Shown here piece by piece: positions 3,798-39,441 of a stretch of DNA of 41,949 bases. The stretch comes from a virus. Lineage: Duplodnaviria; Heunggongvirae; Uroviricota; Caudoviricetes. The translations under genes were made by a program, and so were the position numbers. Location: the IMG/VR virus record IMGVR_UViG_2558860473_000005, positions 1-41,949 of that record; one strand, 5' to 3'. A model generated the notes under the pieces. It was not told the origin of the DNA, did no database searches, and saw only the letters and a list, made by a program, of their open reading frames with translations. Numbering within the stretch: position 1 is the stretch's first letter; each line of letters opens with the position of its first letter.

Positions 3798-3798
3798 C

Positions 3799-20650: not shown

Positions 20651-20756
20651 TTGCCATCACAAAAGCCATTCCCTACAGAGTGGCTTTGATAATGGCTTAT
20701 ACCCTACACGGGATAACTTAACTGATATCCCTTTTAACGGATAAATGGAGCCAACA

Positions 20757-20999
20757 ATGGCAGAGATTATTCCCATGACTGAAGAACAGAAATTCCAGTT
20801 AGAGATTTACAAACTGGTCATGAACCAGAACGCAGCCGCAGAAGAAGCATTTCAGTTCATTGGCACTGACGAGCTGAAGCTTGAGCTATTCAAAATTCAC
20901 TTCCAGTCAGGCGGCGCTAATTCAGATATCACGACCCGCACAATCGAAGCGGTGCGTAAATCGAAGGAAGCGTTAGACCTGTTCACTACCGGAGCATAA
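20757..20999 (+). CDS. Hypothetical protein upstream of the terminase genes, 80 aa
   Basis: GGAG RBS 6 nt upstream of the ATG at 20757 (track ORF starts at 20745). Confidence 0.5.
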   Translation: MAEIIPMTEEQKFQLEIYKLVMNQNAAAEEAFQFIGTDELKLELFKIHFQSGGANSDITTRTIEAVRKSKEALDLFTTGA

Positions 21000-21001
21000 A
21001 C

Positions 21002-21442
21002 ATGGCGCGCCCAACGAAGTATCAAGAGGCGTATGCCGAACAGGCACGCAAACTGTGCTTGCTGGGCTATACAGACGCCGAACTCGCGGACTTCTTTGAA
21101 GTTAGCGAGGCAACAATCAACAATTGGAAATTGGAATATCCGGAGTTTTTAGAGTCCATAAAAAAGGGTAAGGCCGTCGCTGATGCAGAAGTTAGTGATC
21201 GTCTTTATCAACGCGCTATGGGCTTCGTGGCTCCAGACATCGATATTCGTGTTATTGAAAACAGAATTGTCGAAACTCCGCTTGAGAAGTATTACCCGCC
21301 TGATACAACCGCCGCCATCTTCTGGCTTAAGAACCGACAGAAGGATAAATGGCGCGACAAGGTTGATCACGAGCTAACAGGCAAAGACGGCGGCGCAATT
21401 CAGATTGAAACATCACCGATGAGCACTCTATTCGGAAAATGA
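21002..21442 (+). CDS. Terminase small subunit (Sf6 gp1-like), 146 aa
   Basis: C-terminal GKDGGAIQIETSPMSTLFGK matches the Sf6 small terminase by recall; directly precedes the large subunit. Confidence 0.8.
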   Translation: MARPTKYQEAYAEQARKLCLLGYTDAELADFFEVSEATINNWKLEYPEFLESIKKGKAVADAEVSDRLYQRAMGFVAPDIDIRVIENRIVETPLEKYYPPDTTAAIFWLKNRQKDKWRDKVDHELTGKDGGAIQIETSPMSTLFGK

Positions 21443-22854
21443 CCTCGATTAATCCTATCTTTGAACCGTTCATTGAGGCGCATCGCTACAAAGTTGCCAA
21501 AGGCGGTCGAGGTAGCGGTAAGTCATGGGCAATTGCGAGGCTGCTTGTTGAAGCGGCGCGTCGGCAGCCTGTGCGTATTCTCTGCGCTCGTGAACTGCAA
21601 AACAGTATCAGCGATTCGGTAATCCGGTTGCTTGAAGATACCATCGAGCGTGAAGGGTATTCGGCTGAGTTTGAAATTCAGCGTTCAATGATTCGTCATC
21701 TCGGAACGAATGCTGAATTCATGTTCTACGGCATCAAAAACAACCCGACGAAGATTAAATCGCTCGAAGGTATTGATATCTGCTGGGTGGAAGAAGCGGA
21801 GGCGGTAACGAAGGAATCATGGGATATCCTGATACCAACCATCCGTAAGCCGTTCTCTGAAATATGGGTGAGCTTTAACCCGAAGAACATCCTCGACGAT
21901 ACCTATCAGCGATTCGTCGTAAATCCTCCTGATGATATTTGTCTGCTGACGGTGAACTACACCGACAACCCGCACTTTCCTGAAGTTCTCCGTCTGGAGA
22001 TGGAAGAGTGCAAACGCAGAAATCCGACACTGTATCGTCACATCTGGCTTGGTGAGCCGGTAAGCGCAAGTGATATGGCAATCATCAAACGTGAATGGCT
22101 TGAAGCCGCAACCGATGCGCACAAGAAACTCGGATGGAAAGCGAAAGGCGCTGTTGTCTCTGCGCATGACCCATCAGATACAGGGCCAGATGCTAAAGGT
22201 TATGCATCGCGTCACGGTTCGGTAGTTAAGCGCATTGCCGAAGGTCTGCTGATGGACATCAACGAGGGTGCTGACTGGGCTACTTCGCTGGCGATTGAAG
22301 ACGGCGCTGACCATTACCTGTGGGATGGTGATGGTGTTGGTGCCGGGCTACGCAGACAGACAACGGAAGCGTTCTCCGGCAAGAAAATCACCGCCACGAT
22401 GTTCAAAGGCAGTGAATCGCCATTCGATGAAGATGCGCCGTATCAGACCGGAGCATGGGCTGATGAAGTCGTACAGGGCGACAACGTTCGCACTATTGGT
22501 GATGTGTTCCGCAATAAGCGAGCGCAATTCTATTACGCGCTGGCTGACAGGCTGTATCTGACATATCGGGCGGTTGTTCACGGTGAGTATGCAGACCCCG
22601 ACGACATGCTGAGCTTCGATAAAGAAGCGATAGGCGAGAAGATGCTGGAGAAGCTGTTTGCAGAACTGACGCAGATTCAGCGCAAATTCAATAACAACGG
22701 GAAGCTGGAGCTTATGACTAAGGTCGAAATGAAGCAGAAGCTCGGTATTCCATCTCCTAACCTGGCTGATGCGCTGATGATGTGCATGCATTGCCCGGAG
22801 TCGGCTGCGCAACCCGACTATTCCAGTTACTCAATTCCTTGTGGTGTAGGTTGA
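21439..22854 (+). CDS. Terminase large subunit (headful-packaging type, Sf6 gp2-like), 471 aa
   Basis: Walker A KGGRGSGKS, ATPase and nuclease domains; overlaps the small subunit stop. Confidence 0.9.
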   Translation: MTSINPIFEPFIEAHRYKVAKGGRGSGKSWAIARLLVEAARRQPVRILCARELQNSISDSVIRLLEDTIEREGYSAEFEIQRSMIRHLGTNAEFMFYGIKNNPTKIKSLEGIDICWVEEAEAVTKESWDILIPTIRKPFSEIWVSFNPKNILDDTYQRFVVNPPDDICLLTVNYTDNPHFPEVLRLEMEECKRRNPTLYRHIWLGEPVSASDMAIIKREWLEAATDAHKKLGWKAKGAVVSAHDPSDTGPDAKGYASRHGSVVKRIAEGLLMDINEGADWATSLAIEDGADHYLWDGDGVGAGLRRQTTEAFSGKKITATMFKGSESPFDEDAPYQTGAWADEVVQGDNVRTIGDVFRNKRAQFYYALADRLYLTYRAVVHGEYADPDDMLSFDKEAIGEKMLEKLFAELTQIQRKFNNNGKLELMTKVEMKQKLGIPSPNLADALMMCMHCPESAAQPDYSSYSIPCGVG

Positions 22855-22855
22855 T

Positions 22856-25054
22856 ATGGCAGAAAAAAAGATGAATGACTGGCATCGCAAGGTGCTGTGC
22901 AACTTTGATAATGCCTGGTCAGCAACGCAGGATATGCGTGAGCAGATTATTGAGGCTCAACGTTTCGTCCGGGTATCCGGCGCACAGTGGGAAGGCAGCA
23001 CAAACGCTGGTTACTCATTTGATGAAGGCAGGTTTGAGCATTATCCGCGCTTTGAGCTGAATAAGATTGCCCGTGAATGTGATCGCATCATTGGCGAGTA
23101 TCGACAGAATCGCATAAGCGTTAAATTCAGGCCGAAGGACGATAAGGCATCGGAAGCTTTAGCCGAAAAGATGAACGGCAAATTCCGCGCTGACTATCAG
23201 GAAACATCCGGTGGCGAAGCGTGTGATAACGCATTTGATGATGCTGTAACGGGCGGATTCGGTTGTTTCCGCATGTGTGCCGATTACGAAGATGAAATGG
23301 ACCCAAGTAACGAGCAGCGACGCATCAGCCTTCTTCCTGTTTACGACCCGGCGACATGCGTCTTCTTCGATCAGGACAGCAAACAATATGACCGCTCTGA
23401 TGCTATGTGGGCTATGGAAATGTTCTCCATGACGCCTAAAGCGTTCGAGGCTGAATACCCTGATTCCATCGCGGCAAGCCTTTCTCGTGATGACACTGGT
23501 ACTCAGTATGACTGGTCAACGCCTGACGCCATCTATGTTGGACGCTACTACGAAGTCCGCATAGAGAAGGTGAAGCTCACAGCATGGCGTAACCCTGTCA
23601 GCGGAGAAACGGCAATCTATGATGAAGAGCAAATCAAAGATATTGTCGACGAGCTGACCGATGGTGCATTCGAACTGATTGGCGAGCGAACGGTGAAGAA
23701 ACGCCGAGTTTATTGCGGTCTTCTGTCTGGCGCTGAATGGCTGGAAGAACCGAAGCGTATTCCGGGCGAACATATTCCTCTCATCCCGGTATATGGGCGT
23801 CGTTCATTTGTTGATAATCAGGAGCGAATCGAAGGCCACGCAGCAAAAGCGATGGATGCACAGCGTCTTGAGAACCTGATGGTTTCCATGATTGCAGATA
23901 ACGCTACTCAGGCTGGCGGCGATGGCATTCCTATCGTGGATGTTGATTTCATTCCCGGTCCATTAATGAATCACTGGGCAGAGAGGAATAAGAAAAGACC
24001 TGCAGTTCTTCCCATGACCAGCAAGAAGGACAAAAACGGAACGGTCATTTCAGAGGCTCAGGTTGCTGGCTGGACACCTCCGACACAAATGCCTCCTGCT
24101 CTTGCTGGGCTACTGCAGTACACCGGAACGGCTATTCAGCAAATTACAGGTGCGTCGCAGCTTGAGAACATGCCGAGCAACGTCGCTACCGATACCGTTG
24201 ATAGCATCTTTAACCGGATGGACACGCAGTCCTATATCTACATGGACAACATGGCTAAATCCATGCGCCGTGCTGGCGTCGTGTGGCTTTCTATGGCTCG
24301 TGAAGTCTATGGCAGCGATACGCCAATGCGCATCGTTAATGAGGATGGCAGCGATGACGTGGCGCTGATGACTGGTGAAGTGGTTGACCGTCAGACAGGG
24401 AAGGTTATCGCGCTTAACGACCTTTCGCAGGGTAACTATGAAGTGACTGTCGATGTCGGTCAGTCGTTCGCTACTCGCCGTGATGCAACGGTTAAGTCGT
24501 TGCTTTCCATGCTGGCACTTATCCCGCCAGGAACGCCGAAGCATGACCTTGTATCGTCGATGATTCTCGACAATATGGACGGCGAAGGGATGGACGACCT
24601 TAAAGAATACAACCGCAATCAGTTGCTTCTGTCTGGCGTTATTAAGCCGAGAACACCAGAAGAACAGCAAATGGTTGAGCAGGCGAAACAACAACAGGCC
24701 AGTCAGCCAGATCCGGCTATGGTTGCTGCGCAAGGTCAGCTTCTTGCTGGTCAGGCTGAATTGCAGAAAGCGCAGAACGAACAGGCAGCCATTCAGGTTA
24801 AAGCATTCCAGGCACAGACTGATGCTCAGGTTGCAGCGGCAAATGTTGTGAAAATCCTCGCATCTGCCGATAGCCAGCAGAAATCTGATATCCGCGAGGC
24901 TCTGAAACTGCTCGGACAGTTCCAGCAACAGCAAGGAGACAATGCCCGTGCTGATGCAGAGCTTGTCCTGAAAAGTCAGGCACAGGGCCATGCGCAGCAC
25001 ATGGACATCAGCAGCATCCTGCAAAAATCAACTCAGCAACAACCACAGCAGTAA
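22856..25054 (+). CDS. Portal protein (P22 gp1-like), 732 aa
   Basis: Size and conserved segments (GEHIPLIPVYGRRSFVD..., Q/A-rich C-terminal barrel) matching the P22 portal. Confidence 0.9.
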   Translation: MAEKKMNDWHRKVLCNFDNAWSATQDMREQIIEAQRFVRVSGAQWEGSTNAGYSFDEGRFEHYPRFELNKIARECDRIIGEYRQNRISVKFRPKDDKASEALAEKMNGKFRADYQETSGGEACDNAFDDAVTGGFGCFRMCADYEDEMDPSNEQRRISLLPVYDPATCVFFDQDSKQYDRSDAMWAMEMFSMTPKAFEAEYPDSIAASLSRDDTGTQYDWSTPDAIYVGRYYEVRIEKVKLTAWRNPVSGETAIYDEEQIKDIVDELTDGAFELIGERTVKKRRVYCGLLSGAEWLEEPKRIPGEHIPLIPVYGRRSFVDNQERIEGHAAKAMDAQRLENLMVSMIADNATQAGGDGIPIVDVDFIPGPLMNHWAERNKKRPAVLPMTSKKDKNGTVISEAQVAGWTPPTQMPPALAGLLQYTGTAIQQITGASQLENMPSNVATDTVDSIFNRMDTQSYIYMDNMAKSMRRAGVVWLSMAREVYGSDTPMRIVNEDGSDDVALMTGEVVDRQTGKVIALNDLSQGNYEVTVDVGQSFATRRDATVKSLLSMLALIPPGTPKHDLVSSMILDNMDGEGMDDLKEYNRNQLLLSGVIKPRTPEEQQMVEQAKQQQASQPDPAMVAAQGQLLAGQAELQKAQNEQAAIQVKAFQAQTDAQVAAANVVKILASADSQQKSDIREALKLLGQFQQQQGDNARADAELVLKSQAQGHAQHMDISSILQKSTQQQPQQ

Positions 25055-25144
25055 TTAACCCATAACGTGCAATGGCTGTCTTTATGAGGCCTGGCACCCT
25101 ATTGCCTTCCGATGGGCTGAACATCGAGTAAACAGGGGTAACAA

Positions 25145-26038
25145 ATGGACCAGATGGCAGAAAACACACCAGAAGTTGAAATCGAACCCGACGCGTCAGA
25201 GCAGATTCCTGATGATGTCGAACTGGCTGAAGAAGTCGAAAAAGCAGATGGCAGTGAGTCCTCAGGAAATGATGCAGAGGAAGCTACTGACACTGATGAC
25301 GACGAATCAGAACAGGAATTCTACTTTGGTGACGAAAAGCTGGATTCGCCAACCAGCGAAGATAGCGCAGAGCATGGACTGGTAAAACACCTGCGCAAGA
25401 CGATTAAAGAGAAAGACCGTGAGCTGAAAGAGCTGATGCGTCAGTCTCAGAAACCCGTCGAGCAGCAGCCGGTAATCACTCAACCACCGCGAATGCCAAA
25501 ACTGGATGATGAGGACATCGGTTTCGATGAAGAAATCTACCAGCAACGCATGGCTAAGTGGGCAGAGGATAACGGCAAGTACCAGCAACAGGAGATGGCT
25601 CGCAAGCAGAAGGAGCAGGAGCTTCAGGCTGCCTATCAAGAGCGATTATCCAAATATCAGCAACGTGTTAAGGCTCTCAAAGTTCCTGGCTATCAGGAAG
25701 CTGAGCAGGCCGTACTCGAGGAAATCCCCATCGAGACACAAAACGCGATCCTGTTTGAGTCAGAGAAGCCGGAAATCGTTGTTCTGGCACTCGGTCGCAA
25801 CGCTGAACTGCGCAAGCAACTGGCAGAAGCTACCAACCCCGTAGCAATTGGTCGTCTGCTGGAACGTATCGAATCGAAGGCCAGAATCATGCCAAAAGCA
25901 AAAACCACGGCAGCCACAACCCCGACAGTTAAGGGGAGCAACGGCGCAGTAATCAACAACCTCGGCAAATTGAAAGCCAAGGCGCTGGAAACTGGTGACT
26001 GGACGCCGTATTTCGCCGCTAAAAAGGCAAAAAAATAA
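25145..26038 (+). CDS. Scaffolding protein (P22 gp8-like), 297 aa
   Basis: Acidic N-terminus, helical Q/K/E-rich body, position between portal and coat. Confidence 0.8.
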   Translation: MDQMAENTPEVEIEPDASEQIPDDVELAEEVEKADGSESSGNDAEEATDTDDDESEQEFYFGDEKLDSPTSEDSAEHGLVKHLRKTIKEKDRELKELMRQSQKPVEQQPVITQPPRMPKLDDEDIGFDEEIYQQRMAKWAEDNGKYQQQEMARKQKEQELQAAYQERLSKYQQRVKALKVPGYQEAEQAVLEEIPIETQNAILFESEKPEIVVLALGRNAELRKQLAEATNPVAIGRLLERIESKARIMPKAKTTAATTPTVKGSNGAVINNLGKLKAKALETGDWTPYFAAKKAKK

Positions 26039-26056
26039 CCTATCGGAGCATTAAGC

Positions 26057-27310
26057 ATGGCTAACCAATTAGCAAAAGACCTTGAAATCATGTTCGAAAA
26101 CTACGTTGAAGGCTTTGAGGCCGCCTGCGTAGTTTCCCGTAACGCTAAAAAATTCCGTCCCGGTGATACAGCAATGCAGCGAGCAGGTGATGTTCTGTAT
26201 CGTCCGCAGCATTACCACATGAACATTGAGGAAGGCCTAGACCTCAGCGGCAAAACGCCAACAGCACTGGTTCAGCGCCTTGTTCCTTCTGTGTTCAAGG
26301 AACCGAAAAACATTCTGTACACTCTGGATGCGCGTGAAATGCGTGACCCGGAACATAAAACTGAAGCTGGTCGCGCCGCAGGTATGCGCCTTGCTGCACA
26401 GATTGACTCTGACCTGATTTCCATGGTTACGCAGCGTGCTACTAACGTGATCACGATGGCTGACTCAACCACTGGTTCACAGGGCCGTGATTTGTGGAAC
26501 TGTGCGGCAGGTATTGATGCCACCATGACGGCGATTGGTGTACCGCAGGGTATCAACCGTCGCTCTTTCTGGAACCCCTTCAACTACAAAGACCTTGCTG
26601 GCGAGCTTGGTCACCGTGCCTACGCTCAGGGCGCAACCCTGACAGCATACGAAAAAGCGCAGATCCCTCCGGTTGCTTCCTTTGATAGCTACAAGACTGA
26701 TATTTCTGGTCGTGTTCCGAAAGGGACAGCAACTTCCATTACGCTGGCAGCAGCACCTGCGCACAAAGTTGAAGCGAAAGATGCTAACGATATGCCAGTT
26801 GATAACCGACAGGGGACCATTACGGTATCTACTGAAGGTTTGCAGGTTGGCGATGCGTTTACCATTGCAGGGGTGAATTCTGTACACCAGATCACCAAAG
26901 ATACCACCGGGCAGCCGCAGGTATTCCGCGTTCTGGCAGTAAGCGGAACGACAGTAACTATCTCCCCGAAAATTCTGCCGCCTGACAACGCGGATGTCGC
27001 CAGCCGTCCATATGCAAACGTTGATGCTAATGCGGCAAGTAGCGCAGCAATCACCATTCTCAACAAAAATTCCGCACCGGCTAACCTGTTCTGGGCTGAT
27101 GGTTCTGTTGAACTGATGTACGGCAAACTGGCGTTCCCGACTGGTCAGGGTCCACAGGTAATGACAGCAACCACCGAGCAGGGCGCTACGCTGATCATGT
27201 CTTACGCCTTCGACCACATCAAAGGCGTAACCACTGCGCGTTTCACCACTCTGTACGGTTGCTCTGTACTGGTTCCTGAATATACGGGCATCGTTATTGC
27301 CGGGCAGTAA
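26057..27310 (+). CDS. Major coat protein (P22 gp5-like), 417 aa
   Basis: Size, position and similarity to P22/Sf6 coat proteins by recall. Confidence 0.85.
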   Translation: MANQLAKDLEIMFENYVEGFEAACVVSRNAKKFRPGDTAMQRAGDVLYRPQHYHMNIEEGLDLSGKTPTALVQRLVPSVFKEPKNILYTLDAREMRDPEHKTEAGRAAGMRLAAQIDSDLISMVTQRATNVITMADSTTGSQGRDLWNCAAGIDATMTAIGVPQGINRRSFWNPFNYKDLAGELGHRAYAQGATLTAYEKAQIPPVASFDSYKTDISGRVPKGTATSITLAAAPAHKVEAKDANDMPVDNRQGTITVSTEGLQVGDAFTIAGVNSVHQITKDTTGQPQVFRVLAVSGTTVTISPKILPPDNADVASRPYANVDANAASSAAITILNKNSAPANLFWADGSVELMYGKLAFPTGQGPQVMTATTEQGATLIMSYAFDHIKGVTTARFTTLYGCSVLVPEYTGIVIAGQ

Positions 27311-27315
27311 TTTAG

Positions 27316-27340
27316 GTGGGGCTTCGGCCCCATTTTTATT
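27316..27340 (+). terminator. Rho-independent terminator after the coat gene
   Basis: Hairpin GGGGC-ttcg-GCCCC followed by ATTTTTATT. Confidence 0.7.
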
Positions 27341-27351
27341 GGGAGAAGACA

Positions 27352-27540
27352 ATGGCACGAACAATGCTCTATAAGCCGGGCAACATGATCACCTGTGGTC
27401 AGTTTGCTGTCGATTACATCATTGTTGATGACGAAGAAGTTAAATCTCACCTGAAAAAAGGCTGGGTAAAAACTCCTGAAGAAACCGCAACGAAGCAAAA
27501 AGTGGCTAAGGCGGAAGAAGATGGCGAAAACGAAGGGTGA
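27352..27540 (+). CDS. Small hypothetical protein between coat and gp4-like genes, 62 aa
   Basis: GGAGAAG RBS; start at the internal Met (MARTMLYKPG) of track ORF 27316..27540. Confidence 0.5.
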   Translation: MARTMLYKPGNMITCGQFAVDYIIVDDEEVKSHLKKGWVKTPEETATKQKVAKAEEDGENEG

Positions 27541-27982
27541 TCTCGTTCTTAAGGCTTTACGAAAAGCCGGGCTGTATTCCAATGCCACGTTGACAGATGC
27601 TGACCCTCAGGCAATTGAAGATGCCATTAATGACCTCGAAGACATGATGGCAGCATGGCAGGCAAAAGGTATCGAGCTTGGGTATCAGTTTGCTGATACA
27701 GAAAACGGCATCATGCCGTTACCTGACGATGATTCAGGTATCCCTGCATGGGCAAATGATGGCGTCGCTTTGAAACTCGCTGTGCAAGTGTGCATGGATA
27801 ACGTCATTCAGCCGTCAGACGCTCTCCTTACCGCTGCTGACAGTGCATATCAGACAATCTGTATCGCTTTAACCAAAATACCACCACTTGAGCGGAGAAA
27901 TGACATGCCTCGCGGTAGTGGTAACAAAAGCGCGTTTACGTGGAATCGGTTTTACATCGAGAAAGATGATCCGAGTACGTGA
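27521..27982 (+). CDS. Head completion / tail-hub accessory protein (P22 gp4-like), 153 aa
   Basis: Gene order after coat mirrors P22 (4, 10, 26); size comparable. Confidence 0.65.
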   Translation: MAKTKGDLVLKALRKAGLYSNATLTDADPQAIEDAINDLEDMMAAWQAKGIELGYQFADTENGIMPLPDDDSGIPAWANDGVALKLAVQVCMDNVIQPSDALLTAADSAYQTICIALTKIPPLERRNDMPRGSGNKSAFTWNRFYIEKDDPST

Positions 27983-27991
27983 GGTGAATAA

Positions 27992-29410
27992 ATGCCGATT
28001 CAGCAACTTCCGCTTATGAAAGGTGTCGGCAAAGACTTTAGAAACGCCGACTATATCGACTATCTGCCAGTGAATATGTTGGCTACACCCAAAGAAATAC
28101 TCAACAGCAGCGGATATCTTCGCTCATTCCCGGGCATTGCCAAACGTTCTGATGTGAACGGTGTATCGCGCGGTGTCGAGTACAACATGGCGCAGAGTGC
28201 TGTTTATCGCGTGTGTGGCGGCAAGCTGTACAAAGGCGAAAGCGAAGTCGGTGACGTCGCCGGAAGTGGTCGCGTATCAATGGCGCATGGTCGAACATCT
28301 CAGGCGGTAGGCGTTAATGGTCAACTGGTCGAGTATCGCTATGATGGCACGGTTAAAACAGTCTCAAACTGGCCTACAGACAGCGGATTCACTCAGTATG
28401 AGTTAGGTTCGGTTCGTGACATTACGCGCTTACGTGGGCGTTATGCGTGGTCAAAAGACGGAACTGATTCATGGTTCATCACTGACCTTGAAGACGAATC
28501 ACATCCTGACCGCTACAGCGCACAATATCGTGCCGAGTCTCAGCCTGACGGTATCATCGGCATCGGAACATGGCGAGACTTCATTGTCTGCTTTGGTTCA
28601 TCGACGATTGAATATTTTTCCATGACTGGTGCAACCACCGTTGGTGCCGCTTTGTATGTCGCACAGCCATCACTGATGGTGCAGAAAGGTATTGCCGGGA
28701 CTTACTGCAAAACGCCGTTTGCTGATTCCTATGCGTTCATCAGCAATCCGGCAACAGGTGCGCCGTCTGTGTACATCATCGGTTCCGGTCAGGTATCACC
28801 AATCGCCAGCGCGAGCATTGAGAAAATACTACGCTCCTACACTGCTGATGAACTGGCTGATGGCGTGATGGAGTCTCTGCGATTTGATGCGCATGAGCTG
28901 CTGATTATCCACCTTCCTCGCCATGTTCTCGTGTACGACGCATCTTCAAGCGCCAATGGTCCGCAATGGTGCGTACTGAAAACAGGACTGTATGACGATG
29001 TGTACCGCGCTATCGACTTCATTTACGAAGGCAATCAGATAACGTGCGGCGATAAGCTGGAATCCGTGACCGGGAAACTGCAATTCGATATCAGCAGCCA
29101 GTATGACAAGCAGCAGGAACACCTGCTGTTTACTCCACTCTTCAAAGCAGATAACGCCAGATGCTTTGATCTGGAGGTGGAATCATCGACGGGTGTTGCT
29201 CAGTACGCTGACCGCCTTTTTCTCTCTGCAACCACTGACGGCATAAATTACGGTCGTGAGCAGATGATTGAGCAGAATGAACCGTTCGTTTACGACAAAC
29301 GCGTTTTGTGGAAGAAAGTAGGGCGCATCAGGAAAAACATTGGTTTCAAATTGCGCGTTATCACGAAGTCACCTGTCACTCTGTCTGGCGCTCAGATAAG
29401 GATTGAGTAA
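27992..29410 (+). CDS. Head completion / packaged-DNA stabilisation protein (P22 gp10-like), 472 aa
   Basis: Same length as P22 gp10 and conserved synteny. Confidence 0.75.
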
Positions 29411-30363
29411 TGGCGGATTCGAATCTCAATGTTCCGGTAATCATTCAGGCTACACGGCTCGACACATCAGTCCTTCCACGCAATATCTTCTCGCAGTCGT
29501 ATCTGCTTTACGTTATCGCACAGGGCACTGATGTTGGTAACGTGGCTAACAAAGCCAACGAGGCCGGACAGGGCGCTTATGATGCGCAGGTCAGGAACGA
29601 TGAGCAGGATGTCACCCTTGCAGACCATGAATCCAGAATTGAAGCTGCTGAAGCAACTCTCATCAATCATGAACATAGAATTGCAGCAGCGGAAAGCACT
29701 CTTGCAGATCATGAAACAAGGATTACGGCTGCTGAAACAGAGCTGGCTGATCACGAGACGCGAATTGCTGCCAATGAATCTGAGTTAGCAAACCATGATG
29801 CGCGCATAACTCAGAATACAACCGATATCGACGCACTTGATACCAGGCTCACAGCGGCAGAGGGAAGTATTTCGACGCTACAAAGCACAGTTGGTGATCA
29901 CTCAACAAGAATATCTGCGCTTGAGTATGCCACCACGCGCAAGAAATCAGAGGTTGTTTACTCAGGGGTATCGGTAACAATTCCGACAGCGCCTACCAAC
30001 CTTGTTAGCCTGCTGAAAACGCTCACGCCGTCATCCGGCACGTTGGCACCATTCTTCGACACCGTTAACAACAAGATGGTTGTGTTCAACGAGAACAAAA
30101 CCCTGTTCTTCAAGCTGTCGATTGTCGGGACGTGGCCCAGTGGAACCGCCAACAGGTCAATGCAGCTAACCTTTTCCGGCTCTGTTCCTGACACACTGGT
30201 AAGCAGTCGCAACTCGGCGACAACGACCGATAACATCCTGTTAGCTACGTTCTTCAGCGTGGATAAAGACGGCTTTCTTGCCACAAATGGCAGCACGTTA
30301 ACCATTCAGTCGAATGGTGCGTCGTTTACTGCCACAACCATCAAGATAATCGCGGAGCAGTAA
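29410..30363 (+). CDS. Tail needle protein (P22 gp26-like) with heptad-repeat coiled coil and C-terminal knob, 317 aa
   Basis: Repeated [10 protein letters not shown] heptads in the middle; conserved N-terminal tip; extended C-terminal domain. Confidence 0.75.
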
Positions 30364-30818
30364 TGATTCAGTTCAAACCAACGCGAAACATCGACCTGAT
30401 AGAAGCCGTGGGAAATCACCCCGACATTATCACCGGGAGCAACAACGGTGATGGATACGACTACAAGCCTGAATGCCGTTACTTCGAGGTGAACGTGCAC
30501 GGGCAGTTCGGCGGAATTGTTTACTATCAGGAGATTCAGCCGCTTACATTCGATTGCCACGCCATGTACCTGCCAGAGGTTCGTGGATTCAGCAAGGAAA
30601 TCGGGATGGCGTTCTGGCGATACATTCTTACTAACACCACCGTTCAGTGCGTCACATCGTTCGCTGCACGCAAATTCCGCCACGGTCAGATGTACTGCGC
30701 AATGATTGGCCTTAAGCGTGTAGGAACCATCAAGAAATACTTCAAAGGCGTGGATGACGTGACGTTTTACAGCGCCACACGCGAAGAACTAATCGACTTC
30801 CTGAATCACGGGAGATAG
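30363..30818 (+). CDS. Head assembly protein (P22 gp14-like), 151 aa
   Basis: Position and size in the conserved 26-14-7-20-16 order. Confidence 0.6.
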   Translation: MIQFKPTRNIDLIEAVGNHPDIITGSNNGDGYDYKPECRYFEVNVHGQFGGIVYYQEIQPLTFDCHAMYLPEVRGFSKEIGMAFWRYILTNTTVQCVTSFAARKFRHGQMYCAMIGLKRVGTIKKYFKGVDDVTFYSATREELIDFLNHGR

Positions 30819-30820
30819 CC

Positions 30821-31513
30821 ATGTTATATGCATTTAAGCTGGGCAGAAAACTGCGCGGAGAGGAACCTTATTGCCCTGAAAAAGGCGGGAAAGGTGGCAG
30901 TTCTGATAAAAGTGCAAAGTATGCCGCAGAAGCTCAGAAGTATGCCGCAGACCTGCAAAATCAGCAGTGGCAGACGATCATGAAAAACCTTGCTCCGTTC
31001 ACGCCTCTTGCGGAGCAGTATGTTAACCAGCTTCAGAACCTTTCCAGTTTAGAAGGTCAGGGGCAGGCACTTAATCAGTATTACAACTCTCAGCAGTATA
31101 AAGACCTTGCAGGTCAGGCTCGTTACCAGAGTCTGGCGGCAGCGGAAGCAACAGGTGGATTGGGTTCCACTGCAACCGGTAATCAGTTAGCAACAATCGC
31201 ACCAACGCTTGGTCAGCAATGGCTATCTGGTCAGATGAACAACTACCAGAATCTGGCAAATATTGGTCTTGGCGCACTGCAAGGTCAGGCAAACGCCGGG
31301 CAGACATATGCCAACAATATGAGTCAGATTTCGCAGCAAAGTGCGGCTCTTGCAGCGGCAAATGCCAACAGACCATCAGCAATGCAATCTGCTATTGGCG
31401 GAGGTGCGTCTGGTGCTATTGCTGGGGCCGGACTTGCGAAATTAATTGGTTCATCAACTCCGTGGGGGGCTGCGATCGGCGGCGGTCTTGGTCTGCTTGG
31501 CTCGTTGTTTTAA
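30821..31513 (+). CDS. Ejection (DNA transfer) protein, P22 gp7-like, 230 aa
   Basis: Size, synteny, Gly/Ala-rich C-terminus. Confidence 0.7.
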   Translation: MLYAFKLGRKLRGEEPYCPEKGGKGGSSDKSAKYAAEAQKYAADLQNQQWQTIMKNLAPFTPLAEQYVNQLQNLSSLEGQGQALNQYYNSQQYKDLAGQARYQSLAAAEATGGLGSTATGNQLATIAPTLGQQWLSGQMNNYQNLANIGLGALQGQANAGQTYANNMSQISQQSAALAAANANRPSAMQSAIGGGASGAIAGAGLAKLIGSSTPWGAAIGGGLGLLGSLF

Positions 31514-31523
31514 GGGGTAATCA

Positions 31524-32855
31524 ATGGCTACGTGGCAACAGGGTATTAATTCTGGTGGTTTTCTGGCTGGAATTGGTGCGCAAAATGAGAATGCGCCAAA
31601 GGCAAGCGACATTAACGCAACGCTTGGTCTGATTCGCGAAAACAATGAACTGGCTCGCTCAGGTGCAAATAACGTTGGTCTGACCGCGTTACGTGGTCTG
31701 GCTGGAGTTGCTGATATTTACAATCAGGAACAGCAACAGAAAGCTATTAGTGCGTTCAATAAGGTTCACGCTGATGCATGGGCTTCTGGTGATCCATCGG
31801 GACTATTTAAGTTTGCCCGGGAAAATCCAGCGTTTGTTGCACAGGCACAACAGGCGTTTTCCGGTCTTAATGAGCAGCAACGCAACGATATGGGCGATTT
31901 AGCCATGAGGGCTAACGTCGCTCTTTCTCAGGGACCGGAAGCCTACAGTAAATTCATTACTGACAACAAGGACAGGTTAAATCGCGTTGGTGCTAATGCT
32001 GACTGGATGATTCAGACAGGTATCCAGAATCCAGAGCAGCTATCACACATGCTGACTACTATGACGCTAGGGGCTGTTGGTCCGGATAAAATGCTGGATT
32101 ATCAGGATAAGATGGTTGGTCGCCAACTTGAGAAAGGGCGATTGGATGAAAGCATCCGTCAGGCTGACATGGAGAACGCGAGAGGATGGGCAAATATCCA
32201 AAACGCTCAACTAGACAGGGCTCAGCGGGCACAAATGCATAATGATAACGTAGCCCTGAAGTTGCAGGAATTAGGGATGAAACAACAGGAAAGCGGAAAG
32301 ATTGACCCAAAACTTGTTCGAGATCTGAATAGTGATATTAATGGGTTCTCAAAGAATTATTCTGCAATGCGCAGTGCTTCTGACAACCTACAAGCCCTTG
32401 GGAAGCGCAACACTCCAGCCGCGCAGTTGGGAATGATTTTCAACTATATGAAATCGCTGGATCCGCAATCTGTGGTACGCGAAGGTGAGCAAGTGCAGGT
32501 AAAACGCACTGATGGAATATTTGGCACACTTGGTAACTATGTTAGCCAATTATCTAACGGCAAGATGCTGAATAATGAGCAAGTCCAAGACTTAATCAAC
32601 ACCTCAAAACTGATGGCAAATACTGAAGGCGAAAAGTTTAACCAGCAAATGGATGATTATCTTTCAACTTATGGAGATTCTCTCCCCAGCGGACTAACTA
32701 AGCAATTGCAATCCAGAAAAGCCAAGCTGTATGAAGATATTCAGCAGCCTGCGCAACAACAGAGCAATAACCAACAACCGACAAATACCCAACAGCAGCA
32801 GAGTCAATCCGGATCATATACCTCAAAATCAGGCATTCAATTTACGGTGGAATGA
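31524..32855 (+). CDS. Ejection protein, P22 gp20-like, 443 aa
   Basis: Size and synteny; Q/N-rich low-complexity segments. Confidence 0.7.
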
Positions 32856-34978
32856 TGAAAGTAACTGCAAACGGAAAGACATTTACCTTCCCTGATGGTA
32901 CGAGCACGGAAGATATTGGCACCGCCATTGATGAGTATTTTGCTGGTCAGGCTGTTCAGCAACAAACAGTTAATCAGGCCAATAATGAACCAGCGCGTGA
33001 AGAACCATCATTGATGCAACAAGCTGGCGATTGGCTCACTGGTGGTCAAAGTGCAGGGCAAATTGCAGAACAGGCTGGTCGTGGTCTGGTAAACATACCA
33101 TTTGACGTATTGCAGGGTGGCGCAAGTCTGATTAATGCAATCAGTCAGGGGCTTGGTGGGCCAAAAGTATTGGATGATGTCTATCGTCCAGTCGATCGAC
33201 CGACAGACCCTTACGCGCAAGCCGGTGAAACAATTGGTGGGTATCTCCTGCCAATTGGCACAGCGGCAAAAGCTGCTGGAGCGCCAGCAAAGCTCGCTGG
33301 AGATATCGGTTCCGCAGGAAACATGATTGCAGGTTCTCTTGCTGATGCTGCAAATCAGGAGGGCGATTTTGCACAAAATGCTGCCATTAACGGTGGTATC
33401 AATATTGGTGCTCAAGGCGTTCTTTCAGGTGTCGGGCGCGTTATTGCGCCAAGGGTTTCACAGGCTCTTGGTGGTGCAGCACTGAATTCTGCTAATGATG
33501 TTTCCAGGATGGCAAAGTCAGGTGCTGGGCGTCAGTCAATTGCCAGTCAGGCCGCTAATGTGTCCGAAGATGTAGCAAAAGCGGCTGAGTCTGCTGGAAT
33601 TGATATAAACGCATTAACACCAGGAATGCGATCTGGAAGTCGTGGAATTGCACAAGCCGAAGGCGCATTGGCATCAACACCAGGAATCGTTCAGGACGCC
33701 CATCAGGCAGCATTTAACGAAATATCATCAAAGTTAAGTCGAAACCTTGATGAATTTGGGGCCGCATCTGGAACGGCATCAGAAAAAAGTGCGGCTATAA
33801 AACAAAGGATTCTTCAAAATCTTGATCAGATGAAGGATGCCGAGCGCGCGGCATGGGATGACGTGCGGTCAACAATGCCAAATCAAAAATCAAGAATGCT
33901 AAATGGTAATGCCGTTATTCAGGCAGAGCGATCTGCTGGCATACCGCTTACTCCTGAAATGAAACAGTTTGTTCAGGCAAACAATCAAGGTGGAGTAACA
34001 TTTGATGGCATGAAAGCATGGAGAGCGAAATTTGCTGATGCGGAGCAAAAATATAAGCGTAGCGGAGAGGCAAATGCGGCAAGGAGAGCAGGGGAAATAC
34101 GCCGGGCAATTACTGATGATATGCGCACAATGGCGGAAAACGGCGGATTTCTTGATGACTGGCAAAAAGCTAATGATCTGTCTAAAGCGAGGTTATCAGC
34201 ACAAGAGAGTGCAGAGTCTGTTTTCGGGCGTGATTTGGCAACAGATGCACTGATTACGAATGGAGTAAAATCCCTTCAATCATCGTCAGCTAAAGGTCTT
34301 AATGGTCCTGCTGGATTCCATTCTATGATCCGCGCGCTGCCAGAATCAGAGCGTGTTCCTGCTATATCATCAATGTTGCAAGATGCTATCTCGCATGGTG
34401 TACGTGGTGGCAAAGCTGATGCAGCAGGAATTAACCATATCGCAGAGATACTCACTCCACAAAATGTAAAAGCCATTAGCCGATATTCCTCAGAGCTTGG
34501 AAGAATTGCAGATGCATATGGCACTCTTGCAAGAGCAGCAGTGAAACCTCAGCAGTATATTGAAAGAACAGGGAGAACTGCCAATGTACTACGCGATCTG
34601 GATGCTGGTTTATCCAACGTCACATCAACAGTGTTAAATGCAATTGCTAACTCAACATCAGGTGCCATTGTTGGTGGAGCAGGAGGGGGCATTGCAGGCG
34701 CTGCCGCAGGTGCTTTAGTTGGCGCTGGGTTAAAAGGCGCTGTATCTAAAATTGCCACCACACGTAGTGGTCGATATGCGATAGAGAAAGCTGTTCAGGA
34801 AGCCACCAAAGCAGTAAGAGCAGGCGGAAGCAAAGAAGCATTACTGGCGGCGGAACGCAGATTTATGGCAAATAAGGCCGCCGTAAAAGCAATACGTGAT
34901 ACAGTCGGAAACGAAGAGTTTCAGCGCTTAGCGAGGGCTGGTATTGTGGCATCGCTAAGCGGAATGGCACGGGAGTAA
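32852..34978 (+). CDS. Ejection protein, P22 gp16-like, 708 aa
   Basis: Size and synteny; Ala/Gly-rich. Confidence 0.7.
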
Positions 34979-35311
34979 TTAATCATCCATGGATGGATTG
35001 AGCTTATCTCGTGTTGATGTGGCGGTTTTCCCTACATTCCTAAGCCAAGCTTTCAAATCCTTGATATTGTCATTGATTTCATGAATATCTTCCTTTTTTA
35101 ATCTGTCAATATTATTTTCAATAATTTCAATGGATTGCTCAATATCAGATATAGTGAATGATAGTTTGCTCTTCTCATCTGTTATTGAGTTTTTAAGTAC
35201 TTCGTTCTCAGTCTTGAGGTCAGATATCTTTTGCTTTAAAGATGCCAGTTGGCACTGAACCACAATGAGTGCGATAGCTATCACGACAAATGTTGCATAC
35301 ACGCTAACCAC
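34979..35311 (-). CDS. Membrane-anchored coiled-coil protein (N-terminal TM helix then coiled coil), 110 aa; cassette gene C
   Basis: Hydrophobic YATFVVIAIALIVVQ segment followed by heptad-like K/E-rich sequence; GTG start; AT-rich by eye. Confidence 0.55.
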   Translation of the reverse strand: MVSVYATFVVIAIALIVVQCQLASLKQKISDLKTENEVLKNSITDEKSKLSFTISDIEQSIEIIENNIDRLKKEDIHEINDNIKDLKAWLRNVGKTATSTRDKLNPSMDD

Positions 35312-35322
35312 CTTGGTTTTAT

Positions 35323-35676
35323 CTACTTGAGGACTAATCCGTTAAGTGCATCAAGGATTTTAGATACGTAACTACCGAAAATGTAGGTGCAAAAAGCAAA
35401 AACAACCGTGACGACAGCACCGATAGCCTTAATGGTTGTTTTCATTGTGGTGATACTAGTTTCAATACTGCTAAGCCTGGTGTCAATTGACTTCACGTCT
35501 TTTTGAATGATCTCAATGTCACGCTTGATATAGCTGACATCAGACTCTAACTTTGCGACCCTTGATTCCATGCCATCACCTCCTTCGCCTCCAGACCTGT
35601 TCTTATCCTTTGTGTTCTCAGGATGGATACGAGATATGTTTTTTTCACTAATTGATGTTTCAATTATATCAAGCAT
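35323..35676 (-). CDS. Tail-anchored coiled-coil membrane protein (XhlA-like architecture), 117 aa, or 82 aa from the internal start at 35571; cassette gene B
   Basis: Coiled-coil segment then C-terminal hydrophobic helix AIGAVVTVVFAFCTYIFGSYV; strong GGAGG RBS before the internal Met; 8-bp overlap with gene A if the long start is used. Confidence 0.55.
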   Translation of the reverse strand: MLDIIETSISEKNISRIHPENTKDKNRSGGEGGDGMESRVAKLESDVSYIKRDIEIIQKDVKSIDTRLSSIETSITTMKTTIKAIGAVVTVVFAFCTYIFGSYVSKILDALNGLVLK

Positions 35677-36079
35677 CTTTCACATGACTCACGGAAAAGT
35701 AGGCTTGCGCAGAATGCACTAGAGTGTTGTCTTTGCTGATGGATACTCGAATTAAGTAATCCCCGTCAGCATCAAGTTTGCATTTATCGAAATGCATAGA
35801 CATCGATGTTGCCAAGGTGTTCCTGATCTCATTGTGTCCTTTTGCCTTAATCCATACGCCTTTATCACCGCTTACACTGATTTCTAACTCATTCTCGATT
35901 CTATAGAGACAAGCTGAAACCCAATATGGTGTATCATGAATTAAACCGAGAAAGTGAACCTGAAAATCAAGGTCAGTAGTCACAGGTAACTCATCTGTCT
36001 CCATGATTAACATGGGTGATTTTTCATCATTTTCAGACTTATGGTAAGGAAAAAGGAATGCTATTTTTTCAGTGTTCAT
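35669..36079 (-). CDS. Hypothetical soluble protein, 136 aa; cassette gene A
   Basis: Start overlaps the mnt stop by 4 bp (translational coupling); no recognisable family. Confidence 0.55.
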   Translation of the reverse strand: MNTEKIAFLFPYHKSENDEKSPMLIMETDELPVTTDLDFQVHFLGLIHDTPYWVSACLYRIENELEISVSGDKGVWIKAKGHNEIRNTLATSMSMHFDKCKLDADGDYLIRVSISKDNTLVHSAQAYFSVSHVKDA

Positions 36080-36318
36080 TTCCCATCCCTTAAACGTTTA
36101 AGTACATTGATGGTTACATCAAGAGCCTCTTGCTCTGACTTTGCCAGTTGCTGACTGCTTAATGGTATAACCTGCTCTTTATGCATTTTTATCCACAACT
36201 GGATAGCAGCAATAATCTCAGCATTGATAGAGCGTCGATTAGTGGCAGCAATATGCGTAAGTTGCTGTTTTATCTCATCTGGCATTCTTACGTTGAATTG
36301 CGGATCATTTCTAGCCAC
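36076..36318 (-). CDS. mnt: Mnt-like ribbon-helix-helix repressor, 80 aa
   Basis: MARNDPQFNVRMPDEIKQQL... resembles P22 Mnt; divergent from arc; GTG start with GGAGA RBS. Confidence 0.75.
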   Translation of the reverse strand: MARNDPQFNVRMPDEIKQQLTHIAATNRRSINAEIIAAIQLWIKMHKEQVIPLSSQQLAKSEQEALDVTINVLKRLRDGK

Positions 36319-36411
36319 GTCATTCTCCTTTTATTTATTGACATGCTAGAACGGTAGTAGTACGCTTTCAATAGTAGTACGGTGCTATCATTTGATGAAA
36401 TGGAGGTGAAT
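36319..36411 (+). promoter_or_regulatory. immI-like divergent promoter/operator region (Pant-like -35 TTGACA 36338-36343; direct repeats TAGTAGTAC at about 36355 and 36373)
   Basis: Intergenic region between divergent mnt and arc; candidate -35/-10 elements on both strands overlapped by two 9-bp direct repeats. Confidence 0.45.
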
Positions 36412-36573
36412 ATGCAAGGTGCAAGAAAAATGCCGCAGTTCAATTTGCGGTGGCCTAAAGAAGTATTGGATTTGGTACGCAAGGTGGCGGAAGAGAATGG
36501 TCGGTCTGTTAATTCTGAGATTTATCAGCGAGTAATGGAAAGCTTTAAGAAGGAAGGGCGCATTGGTGCGTAA
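36412..36573 (+). CDS. arc: Arc repressor (ribbon-helix-helix), 53 aa
   Basis: [53 protein letters not shown] is near-identical to P22 Arc by recall; GGAGGTG RBS. Confidence 0.9.
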
Positions 36574-36577
36574 AGTT

Positions 36578-36609
36578 GAAGCCCCAACTGCTGGAACAGT
36601 CAGGGCTTC
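36578..36609 (+). promoter_or_regulatory. Extended hairpin in the arc-ant intercistronic region
   Basis: GAAGCCC...GGGCTTC with inner ACTG/CAGT stem; no U-run on either strand. Confidence 0.35.
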
Positions 36610-36641
36610 GGTATCAACAAAACTTACGAGGTATTATTGAT

Positions 36642-37532
36642 ATGTCAAGCTTAGCAAAGTCAACTGTAAATTGCACTAATAGCATCATCATTTCTGACGT
36701 CAAGATTCATATGGATTCAGAGGGGCGTTACTCGCTTAATGACCTTCATGTAGCGTCTGGGAAGGAGGAAAAACATCAGCCAGCTTTCTTCATGCGTAGA
36801 AATGAAACTATTGAATTAATTAATGAAATTTTTAATTCTGCGGATATGCAGAATAAGAATCCCGTCCTTTCTAAGAAAGGTCGATATGGTGGAACCTACG
36901 TGTGCAAGGAGCTTGTTTACTCCTACGCCATGTGGATTAGTGCATCCTTTGCGCTGAAGGTTATCCGTGCATATGACGCAATGGTTACTGCCACACAAGA
37001 TAGGAAGGCTATTGGAGGTAAAACTTCAGTAGCTGAACGCACACCGCTACGAGATGCAGTAAACATGCTGGTAGGAAAGAAAGGACTTCGCTATGACGAT
37101 GCATACAATATGGTTCATCAGCGTTTTGGTATTGACAGCATTGATGAACTTTCAATTGAACAAATCCCGCTGGCCGTAGAGTACATCCACAGGGTAGTGC
37201 TTGAAGGTGAGTTCATTGGCAAACAAGAGAAGAAAACCAACGAGCTTTCTGCAAAAGAAGCAAACAGCCTTGTATGGTTATGGGATTATGCCAACCGTTC
37301 ACAGGCATTATTCCGCGAACTGTATCCGGCGCTAAAACAAATTCAATCGAACTATTCCGGCAGATGCTACGACTACGGTCATGAGTTCTCGTATGTTATC
37401 GGAATGGCGAGAGACGTTTTAATAAACCACACACGAGATGTTGATATTAATGAGCCAGACGGACCAACGAATCTTTCCGCATGGATGAGACTTAAGAATA
37501 AAGAATTACCTCCTTCAGTACATAACTACTGA
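36642..37532 (+). CDS. ant: Antirepressor Ant (KilA-N domain N-terminus), 296 aa
   Basis: KilA-N-like segment ([24 protein letters not shown]...); downstream of arc as in P22 immI; GAGGT RBS. Confidence 0.8.
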
Positions 37533-37632: not shown

Positions 37633-39441
37633 ATGACAGATTCAATAAATGCCAATGTTGTAGTGAGCATGCCATCGCAACTCTTCACTATGGCTCGTTC
37701 TTTTAAAGCCGTAGCCAATGGCAAAATTTATATCGGTAAAATTGACACTGACCCGGTAAATCCTGAAAACCAGATTCAGGTTTATGTAGAGAACGAAGAC
37801 GGCTCTCACGTTCCTGTTTCTCAACCAATCATCATTAACGCTGCTGGTTACCCAGTATATAACGGACAGATTGCCAAGTTTGTAACCGTGCAAGGCCATT
37901 CTATGGCTGTTTATGATGCGTATGGTGCACAGCAGTTTTATTTTCCTAATGTGCTGAAGTATGACCCTGATCAGTTTGGTCCAGACTTCAAAGAGCAGTT
38001 ATCTCAATCAGGGGAATACATTAATGATGATTCAAAAGGTGATGCATTAATTGGCGTAAGACAGCCCGTTGCCGGGTCGGTAGCTATCACACAGCATGAT
38101 AAAAACGCACAAATAATCAACTTAAAAGATTTTGGTGCTAAGTGCGATGGTGTAACTGATGACACAGTGGCAATTCAGGCTGCTGTAGCTGCTGCGCATA
38201 CTGGTGTCCGTATAGTTCAACCTGCAGGGGTTTGCCTTACATCTCAGCCGTTGTCATTCACTAGTCCTGCATTTTGGTATGGAGATGATGGCGCTCGCAT
38301 TAAGCTCATTAGTGGCAGTCATGACTATGTTATGGAAATTGATCTTCGCGGGCCTAGTGGTTCGTTCTGGGGTTATGGGTCACATATTGAAAACATTATC
38401 TTTGATGGTGGTGGTCACGCAAAAGATGGCCTTTCATTGCGTGGTGTTATCGGAGGTATATTCAAAAATATTCGTGGGACAAATATATCAAGGACCGCTA
38501 TTCATGAATGGTGGACCCAACTTTGCCACTATGAAAATATTCAATGCAGTAATAATATTGAAGCATTCCAAACAACCCCTATTCACGGAATCTTATCTGA
38601 TTGTGAGTTTGGAACTGGTAATGATCGTGGGTCTTCTGCAAATACTTACATGAATACCACTATTGAACATACCTCTGGTAGTGGGATTTGTGGGGTGTTT
38701 ATGTCTAATTGTACATTTATAAATGGCACATCAGAAGGTAACGATATTGGCATTGAGTTTGGTCACGCTACTGATGATAGAAACCAATCAGTTGGGAATT
38801 CAGTTATTGGCATGGATCTTGAAGTTAATTCTTTAACTGATGTGTTATTACATAAAACAACATATGCAAATGACTTTATTGGTCTAAAAGCTGGTTATTC
38901 ATCTCCAGCCATTCAGGTGCAAGGCTCATATGCTAATAGCTTTATTGGTGGAGTAAGCAGTGGTATAGATTTTGACTCATCATCGCATGATAATAAAGTA
39001 ATAGGTATGAATCTTTTAGGCAACGATTCTATCATCGTAGATAACGGGTTAAGAAATTCATATGAGAATATTTTCAATATTTCATCTGGAGCTAAAAAAG
39101 AAAGCACTAACCCTTATCCATCGCGTAGCAACAATATAATTTCATCAAATGGTACTGTGCAAATTAACCCATTTTTATCATCATACTGTGTTGTGTCGGC
39201 TACTGGTTCACCAATTAATGTTACGTCTGTAGCAAAAAAATTAGACGGTGCGACTATTGATATGACTATTCATAACATTTCTGGATCTGATGAATTAATA
39301 GTAAACTGGTCTTCTGACTTCAGAGTTTCTGGATGGACAAGCCCGGCAACAGGGCGCCACCGGTCTATAAGATTTGCTTATGATGCAAACTACGGATACT
39401 GGACTGCTATATCTATGAGTCAGTCAGATATTCTGAACTAA
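37633..39441 (+). CDS. Tailspike protein: P22-type N-terminal head-binding domain plus divergent beta-helix receptor-binding domain, 602 aa
   Basis: First ~115 residues match the P22/Sf6 tailspike N-terminus by recall; the rest has repetitive G/N/S/T-rich strands typical of parallel beta-helix depolymerases. Confidence 0.85.

Follow-up and report, generated by a model that had tools for sequence, protein, structure and literature searches.

The interval between cI and N is a recognised hotspot and the classical slot for rex or bstA cargo: it encodes the abortive-infection (Abi) systems RexAB and BstA, and its transcription in lysogens is strong (PMC8585504). In lambda, rexA and rexB are co-transcribed with the lysogeny repressor gene and encode one cytoplasmic and one inner-membrane protein; in 2008, the authors of the epsilon34 genome described gene pair 45/44 of that phage as "like rexA and rexB" in position, matching nothing (PMC2629481). 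A further cargo slot of P22-like phages lies between gene 16 and mnt. In P22, sieA abuts gene 16 and is followed by ORF59 and then mnt; sieA is carried by 22/66 P22-like phages, and SieA has 162 to 164 amino acids (aa), three predicted transmembrane (TM) segments (types B and C, one more), and an FxRYPxEAxxFNK motif (PMC10883804). In the lysogen of Gally, a P22-like prophage of Escherichia coli, transcript levels of genes in the same slot exceed those of the neighbouring structural genes (PMC9928086 supplement). Here, we report an analysis of three minus-strand genes, A, B, and C, that fill this slot in a P22-like E. coli prophage (IMG/VR record IMGVR_UViG_2558860473_000005, positions 1 to 41,949; this 41,949-nucleotide stretch is referred to as the window).

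We put at about 50% the probability that the locus consists of two independent cargo units in the immI ("ant moron") region, one being A-B, a lysogen-expressed Rex-like module, and the other C, a homolog of hkcB. The genes were already catalogued (in PHROGs, and as "hypothetical" or "hemolysin XhlA" by the NCBI Prokaryotic Genome Annotation Pipeline [PGAP]), and one pair had been noted by its position in epsilon34. New here are the division of the cassette into two units, the link between A and partner proteins encoded at the cI site, the order repressor-variable partner-B as a rule, the in-frame swapping of partner plus B tail, and a conserved internal start in B.

Gene content of the gene 16-mnt junction

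The window segment is 99.9% identical to E. coli 266917_2, in which the corresponding prophage adjoins torT. The first gene of the operon, mnt (36076-36318, minus; 80 aa), encodes an Arc/Mnt-family maintenance repressor (Arc domain PF03869, E 4.9e-13; phrog_2685, E 2e-33). It overlaps A (35669-36079, minus; 136 aa) by 4 bp (ATGA), A overlaps B (long form, 35323-35676, minus; 117 aa) by 8 bp, and an 11-bp gap separates B from C (34979-35311, minus; 110 aa), which ends one base past the stop (34978) of the convergent gene for a gene 16-type ejection (DNA transfer) protein (32852-34978, plus). These coordinates bear out the gene arrangement described in the original prediction, made from the sequence by a model, and a hydropathy scan, with AlphaFold2 (AF2) models for A and B, agrees with its topologies (A soluble, B a coiled coil with a C-terminal TM segment, C with an N-terminal TM segment). 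Synteny and the promoter alignment described below likewise support the claim that the genes belong to the mnt operon of a P22-like prophage and occupy a cargo slot already known to be variable.

The original prediction had treated A, B, and C as one superinfection-exclusion or Abi system and had proposed a comparison of gene content at the gene 16-mnt junction as a check. When this was done for 57 viral contigs, hkcB proved independent of its neighbours. It lies antisense to gene 16 and abuts its 3' end in 57/57 viral loci, as C does in the window, and the hkcB-mnt interval contains A-B in the window phage only; elsewhere, the interval holds a CxxC protein with another B subtype, epsilon34 gp15, hkcC, other genes or, in CUS-3, genes of 199 and 139 aa. 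The upstream neighbours of hkcB in other phages are all different and often on the opposite strand (epsilon34 gp15, hkcC), and the match between the window and other phages breaks ~10 bp upstream of the C start. Among 5,426 complete E. coli genomes, the hkcB segment is present in ~188 and the whole A-B-C-mnt block in one. Pairs of the A-B type, in turn, occur without hkcB in dozens of prophages and in most of the 80 viral contigs with a B relative that formed our survey set, and in one of these (L022) the pair itself directly abuts gene 16. A single three-gene system would account for the tight packing of A, B, and C on one strand and probably on one transcript from Pmnt, for the short B-C gap, and for the presence of coiled coils and TM segments in both B and C, but because of the synteny it is largely refuted, and we regard it as very improbable.

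The partner-B pair

A same-strand partner open reading frame (ORF) abuts or overlaps the B start in 79/80 loci of the survey, and A stands in this relation to B in the window. Most partners belong to the A/X family (52 loci); the others are a CxxC...CxxC protein (~15), a family of ~90 aa (9), and singletons. Like the window pair behind mnt, pairs typically lie downstream of a lysogeny repressor: at least 45 are found behind cI, at least three behind an Arc/Mnt-type gene (L021, L022, and L086), and others behind short helix-turn-helix (HTH) repressors divergent from cro/cII. Four more Arc/Mnt-type loci (L116, L118, L120, and L121 [2544-3830]), which came from the hkcB scan and represent another P22-like lineage, have the order mnt, 121-aa CxxC...CxxC protein, third B subtype (111 aa), hkcB, i.e., the operon design of the window but with an unrelated partner. 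Whenever the pair is at the cI site in prophages of E. coli, Salmonella, Yersinia, and Enterobacter, the genes run cI, a partner of 127 to 156 aa, B, and N; this is the slot of lambda rexAB. The window phage has its cI (9993-10694, minus; HTH_3 and Peptidase_S24 domains) followed directly by N (9332-9748; PF11438); this classical slot is empty, and the module therefore uses the other lysogenic operon, that of mnt. The partner-B module is widespread across Enterobacterales prophages. In enteropathogenic E. coli (EPEC) E2348/69 (O127:H6; H84-H86), a cI-site pair annotated as two hypothetical proteins is 98.7% identical to L009 4577-5372.

The variable partner of the window module, A, is cytoplasmic, with no TM segment in the hydropathy scan and no signal peptide. 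Its AF2 model is all-beta (predicted local distance difference test score, 91) and forms an immunoglobulin (Ig)-like beta-sandwich. Structural neighbours include adhesin repeats, Ig-like domains of glycosidases, and the lipid-binding cups of RhoGDI, PDE-delta, and GM2-activator; the closest viral models are uncharacterised single-domain small proteins of Firmicutes phages, and no enzyme fold was present among the structural matches. A belongs to the A/X partner family (phrog_5893, E 5e-51). Its immediate family comprises 13 clusters, all unnamed. Members are always encoded behind an Arc/Mnt gene, which they overlap by 4 bp, whether in Salmonella prophages of the P22-like kind or in a siphovirus-type prophage of Leclercia that is unrelated to them, and a B-type gene always comes next, in Leclercia too once the full ORF is read. 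A is also homologous to the cI-site partners: in a collinear alignment of 119 aa, the identity is 26%, blastp matches A to the L009 partner at E 1.6e-9, and A/X alignments share a conserved N-terminal strand, E-[KR]-I-[AS]-[FY]-x-x-P. A joint profile of A and cI-site partners retrieved 54 clusters, all from Enterobacterales. A tblastn search with A as the query had no match among 50,697 phage records.

B consists of a disordered, variable tail (residues 1 to 28), a glycine-rich linker (29 to 35), a conserved coiled coil, and a C-terminal TM segment (~78 to 105, from the hydropathy scan); in the AF2 model, residues 1 to 30 are disordered and 35 to 116 form one helix. Both its sequence match (phrog_6136, E 1e-37) and this architecture, including the coiled-coil motif E-x-RVAKLESDV-x-YIKRD (the IKRD being followed by more coiled coil), place it in a family of 70 clusters, often automatically named "hemolysin XhlA," with at least three core subtypes. 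An exhaustive B-profile search gave ~150 clusters with the same plan at an E value of ≤1e-10, and the family size is given to that limit, as the search is contaminated by long coiled-coil proteins. An identical B protein is encoded in IMG/VR contig UViG_2645727970_000011. Elsewhere in the window, ORF 29410-30363 matches the B profile weakly (E 1e-4); rather than a second B gene, it most likely encodes a virion protein, perhaps a tail-needle-type one, that resembles B through its coiled coil.

Partner and B tail are inherited as a unit, and the coiled-coil/TM cores of B are interchangeable. Where partners are ≥60% identical (33 pairs), the tails are never <30% identical, and 10 of the 33 have a different B core. 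Where partners are unrelated (652 pairs), the tails never reach 50% identity, and the cores are ≥70% identical in 116. Two comparisons illustrate the exchange: L022 and L086 share 74% identity in the partner and 78% in the tail against 35% in the core, and the corresponding values for L024 and L078 are 72%, 68%, and 33%. The swap junction is in-frame and falls at the glycine linker and the conserved RVAKLESDV motif (L021-L100).

The same linker carries an internal start signal. On the minus strand (35569-35592), it is encoded as ggaggcgaaggaggtgatggc-ATG, with a Shine-Dalgarno (SD) sequence, GGAGG (35583-35579), 7 nucleotides before the in-frame ATG (35571-35569) of Met36. An internal SD and ATG are present in 40/40 distinct B genes of three subtypes (L005-L100 and L116), GGAGG lying 5 to 9 nucleotides before the ATG. 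The mean SD duplex energy at B internal starts is -10.8 kcal/mol versus -1.8 kcal/mol for 1,490 control internal Met codons, GGA makes up 35% of the glycine codons in the linker region versus 19% in the background, and the frame of the tail is open in 39/39 distinct sequences. With the internal SD and ATG conserved and the tail frame kept open, two isoforms of B are likely, the 117-aa form and a putative short form of 82 aa starting at Met36 (35323-35571, minus). SieB/Esc of P22 and the S107/S105 holin/antiholin pair are dual-start genes that give a shorter second isoform. B, a membrane-protein gene with an in-frame internal start and a predicted shorter product, resembles them in this respect and is not homologous to them.

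Gene callers pick either start for near-identical B DNA. Thus, B genes that appeared truncated in Leclercia (L006, 6401-6727; 70 aa) and Salmonella (L007, 6404-6757; 82 aa) are calls at the internal start, whereas L008 (4258-4611), with near-identical DNA, was called at the upstream start. As the full-length frames are open, truncation of these genes was rejected.

Gene C and the mnt operon

C is a member of the hkcB family (phrog_5962, E 1e-56, spanning 109/109 profile positions). It is 87 to 92% identical to epsilon34 gp14, CUS-3 hkcB, and SEN22_15 and 49% identical to HK620 hkcB, and it agrees with the HK620, CUS-3, and epsilon34 genes in length, position, and orientation, with no substantive difference. 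An N-terminal TM segment (residues 1 to 27, hydropathy scan) is followed by a coiled coil. An alternative GTG start at 35302, preceded by the SD sequence AAGGTGG and giving 107 aa, matches PGAP and other phage records and is likely the true start. The last ~37 residues (34979-35070; EDIH.I.D.I..LK.WL.NVG..ATSTRDKLNPSMDD) hardly vary, even where the homologs compared share only 48% identity overall, which suggests a functional element.

The original prediction had placed the whole cassette at the position of P22 sieA. This holds for C only, because in P22 it is sieA that abuts gene 16, and ORF59 sits just downstream of mnt; A and B are not strictly there. Like SieA, C is of inner-membrane type and is encoded antisense to gene 16 in exactly sieA's place. 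By synteny, hkcB is the positional counterpart of sieA, but its product is not homologous to SieA. The number of TM segments is zero in A and one each in B and C, and phmmer and a motif search detected neither SieA homologs nor the FxRYPxEAxxFNK motif, whether in the window or in the surveyed loci (57 with hkcB and 80 with B). By analogy of position, hkcB may be an alternative superinfection-exclusion protein and is a candidate for that role.

A minus-strand promoter-like sequence, TTGAAA-17-TAGCAT (36371..36343; promoter scan), aligns with P22 Pmnt and faces a conserved TTGACA, the -35 element of Pant. Here, mnt diverges from arc (36382-36573) and ant (36576-37532; KilA-N and P22_AR_C domains), and the mnt-arc intergenic region is collinear with its P22 and epsilon34 counterparts, the latter annotated there with Pmnt/Pant/arcO. 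No minus-strand intrinsic terminator was found from mnt through C or in the sequence immediately past C. Co-transcription of mnt-A-B-C from this Pmnt-like promoter is a plausible prediction; in the window, transcripts of the mnt operon probably extend through C, whereas hkcB of other phages stands alone on its strand. Between 36319 and 36381, the hexamers of Pant and Pmnt line up collinearly with their P22 and epsilon34 counterparts, and the sequences at the positions of the arc and mnt operators differ, so that repressor specificity in the immI region of the window probably differs from that of the two phages; an inverted-repeat search of the mnt-arc region for operators found none at the settings used. 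The antirepressor gene (36576-37532) was called from a TTG start, and its counterpart in the near-identical E. coli 266917_2 prophage is annotated by PGAP as 296 aa.

The cassette had also been described as more AT-rich than the flanking structural genes, which was taken to suggest horizontal acquisition. Computed GC content is indeed low (A, 39.2%; B, 39.8%; C, 35.7%; together, 38.2%) compared with gene 16 (48.2%) and the structural genes at 20000-34978 (49.3%), but it is not peculiar to the cassette, because the rest of the right end is likewise low (mnt, 40.7%; ant, 42.5%; tailspike, 39.7%). The tailspike ORF (37633-39441) encodes 602 aa, compared with 883 aa in the E. coli 266917_2 prophage (L158 22655-25306); the window therefore represents a related but different phage.

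Proposed function and competing explanations

In the mechanism that we propose, placement behind mnt or cI would have the prophage make A-B in the lysogen. B would be a tail-anchored inner-membrane protein, held by its C-terminal TM segment, with tail, glycine linker, and coiled coil facing the cytoplasm, and the partner (here A) would dock on the tail and act as a sensor or regulator. Upon infection by another phage, the coiled-coil/TM core would oligomerise and compromise the inner membrane, aborting or excluding the infection in a manner functionally analogous to lambda RexA/RexB. The short, tail-less isoform would probably tune or antagonise the long form, as in P22 SieB/Esc or holin/antiholin pairs. 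The variable partner and tail look like a specificity element, and the conserved coiled coil and TM segment look like an effector. Judged by analogy, A-B is most likely a Rex-like, lysogen-expressed Abi or exclusion module. The membrane-acting exclusion or Abi role assigned to the whole cassette in the original prediction is thus retained as our best guess for A-B, in the form of one soluble partner and one membrane protein, with hkcB set apart as independent.

The likeness to RexA/RexB is one of organisation, strengthened by most A-B relatives occupying the exact cI-N slot. No Rex homology appeared among Pfam, PADLOC, and NCBIfam matches at E values up to 1. RexA has 279 aa and no Ig-like domain, whereas the partner slot is swappable among unrelated folds, and the window copy lies behind mnt, whereas lambda RexAB lies behind cI. 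Epsilon34 genes 45/44, with identical pairs in g341c and NM-3, are true homologs of the A-B type. They directly follow repressor gene 46, i.e., at cI and not mnt; gp45 is 73% identical to an E. coli cI-site partner but only ~20 to 25% identical to A, and gp44 shares the B tail, linker, and coiled coil but differs in its C-terminal half (second B subfamily).

Several points weigh against a Rex-like defence role. Lambda RexB has four TM helices and B has one. Coiled-coil/TM proteins also include spanins, holin partners, and division proteins. Searches of PADLOC-DB v2.0.0 gave no match for A and four other partners, a weak CorA-like match for B (E 0.002), and coiled-coil noise for C, and no NCBIfam model matches the A-B pair; the case for defence is consequently one of position and architecture. 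The literature (on hkcB, on XhlA and prophages, on mnt morons, on prophage-defence screens, and in DefensePredictor supplements) yielded no experiments with these genes. In four loci, the pair is a moron in the tail region and does not follow a repressor, and few E. coli strains carry the module (of the 5,426 complete genomes, 1 has the window type and 22, with EPEC E2348/69 among them, the cI-N type). The linker being GG-rich by nature, the SD signal could in part be a by-product of coding, and mere adjacency with recombination at the conserved motif could produce the co-inheritance of partner and tail.

The most serious of the alternatives, although an unlikely one, is that A-B, hkcB, or both are lysogenic-conversion genes serving envelope stress, survival in the host, or virulence and unrelated to phages. 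The position is typical of a moron, no known defence model (PADLOC v2) matches, and in the LF82 prophage Gally, the slot genes and mnt are induced 6- to 40-fold inside macrophages (PMC9928086); yet a hypervariable, sensor-like partner swapped as a module onto a conserved membrane core is an arms-race pattern, and the marked bias toward the rex/bstA slot likewise speaks for a role against phages. Slightly less credible is a block of DNA entry at the envelope by A-B and/or hkcB, i.e., SieA-like exclusion rather than Abi. SieA acts on gp16/gp20 at the inner membrane (PMC10883804), and here the locus adjoins ejection-protein genes, replaces sieA/ORF59, and encodes two inner-membrane proteins (B and C). 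However, similarity to SieA and its motif are lacking in the loci searched, and the module is found at cI-N in many phages that are not P22-like and hence is not bound to ejection proteins of the P22 type. Moreover, because A, the other partners (also without signal peptides), and most of B are cytoplasmic, sensing of an intracellular cue with membrane damage is favoured over an entry block. For hkcB taken by itself, exclusion at the envelope is still a candidate role.

A lysis accessory, in which an XhlA-like holin partner (B) and an XepA/YomS-like beta-sandwich (A) would promote the phage's own lysis or vesicle release, is improbable. In Bacillus PBSX, the order is xepA (beta-sandwich), xhlA, xhlB, xlyA, and XhlA is needed for lysis (PMC6834076; PMC5589764). 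XhlA (PF10779) resembles B as a small coiled-coil protein with a C-terminal TM segment encoded after a beta-sandwich gene; B also gives a weak match that spans nearly the full profile of this family, and many of its homologs carry the XhlA name at NCBI, while A has its best viral structural matches in Firmicutes phages. Against this, window B scores 24.8 bits versus a gathering cut-off of 34.7, 19/27 B members match weakly (best E 1.9e-5) without any reaching the cut-off, and distant B relatives give no XhlA match. XepA and YomS are absent from the top 50 to 60 structural matches of A. All examined loci have the pair in lysogenic operons or as tail-region morons and none in a lysis cassette, the site of PBSX xhlA; the holin and endolysin genes of the window lie elsewhere. 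Membership of B in XhlA was therefore rejected on both Pfam threshold and context. Finally, mnt and A could form a toxin-antitoxin-like or regulatory pair in which A acts on immI control. Ribbon-helix-helix (RHH) antitoxins are commonly encoded before their toxins, and the 4-bp mnt/A overlap and conservation of this linkage in the distant Leclercia prophage would fit such a pair. Yet some close A-like partners (L063, L065, and L066) are encoded behind repressors that are not RHH proteins, the wider A/X family follows cI, and the Ig-like beta-sandwich of A is not a toxin fold. This possibility is the least probable of all; a toxin-antitoxin role was rejected on the grounds that repressors of other types also stand before A-like genes and that a B gene invariably comes after them.

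Returning to the reading of A-B as a Rex-like module beside an independent hkcB, profile and structure searches, which had been suggested as a further check, gave an Ig-like beta-sandwich for A, a helix with a TM segment for B, and hkcB for C. A, B, and C are not virion or injection components, a result that would have told against the original prediction had it been otherwise. No informative family emerged when A, B, C, and four further partners were scanned against Pfam, NCBIfam, and PADLOC, and the earlier impression that the three proteins were unrecognisable stands insofar as none belongs to a family of known function; all three are nevertheless in PHROG families, and the epsilon34 pair had been noted before.

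A fuller picture, which we offer tentatively and consider doubtful as a whole, is that partner-B pairs constitute a new and widespread modular prophage Abi family in which a cytoplasmic sensor and its docking tail are exchanged as an in-frame unit on a conserved membrane-disrupting core, with the tail-less isoform as a regulator or self-immunity factor, the window version being a rare one driven from the mnt promoter in place of that of cI, and hkcB as a second, SieA-independent exclusion protein against P22-type DNA ejection. If true, a new family would join the few prophage defences encoded in repressor operons (RexAB and BstA), and its swappable sensor and docking tail on a conserved membrane effector, possibly under isoform control, would be potentially reprogrammable. 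It would also explain the recurrent pairs of "hypothetical" or misnamed "hemolysin XhlA" genes in prophages of Salmonella, Klebsiella, Enterobacter, Yersinia, and E. coli, including EPEC E2348/69, and hkcB would be a concrete candidate for the replacement of SieA in the two-thirds of P22-like phages without sieA.

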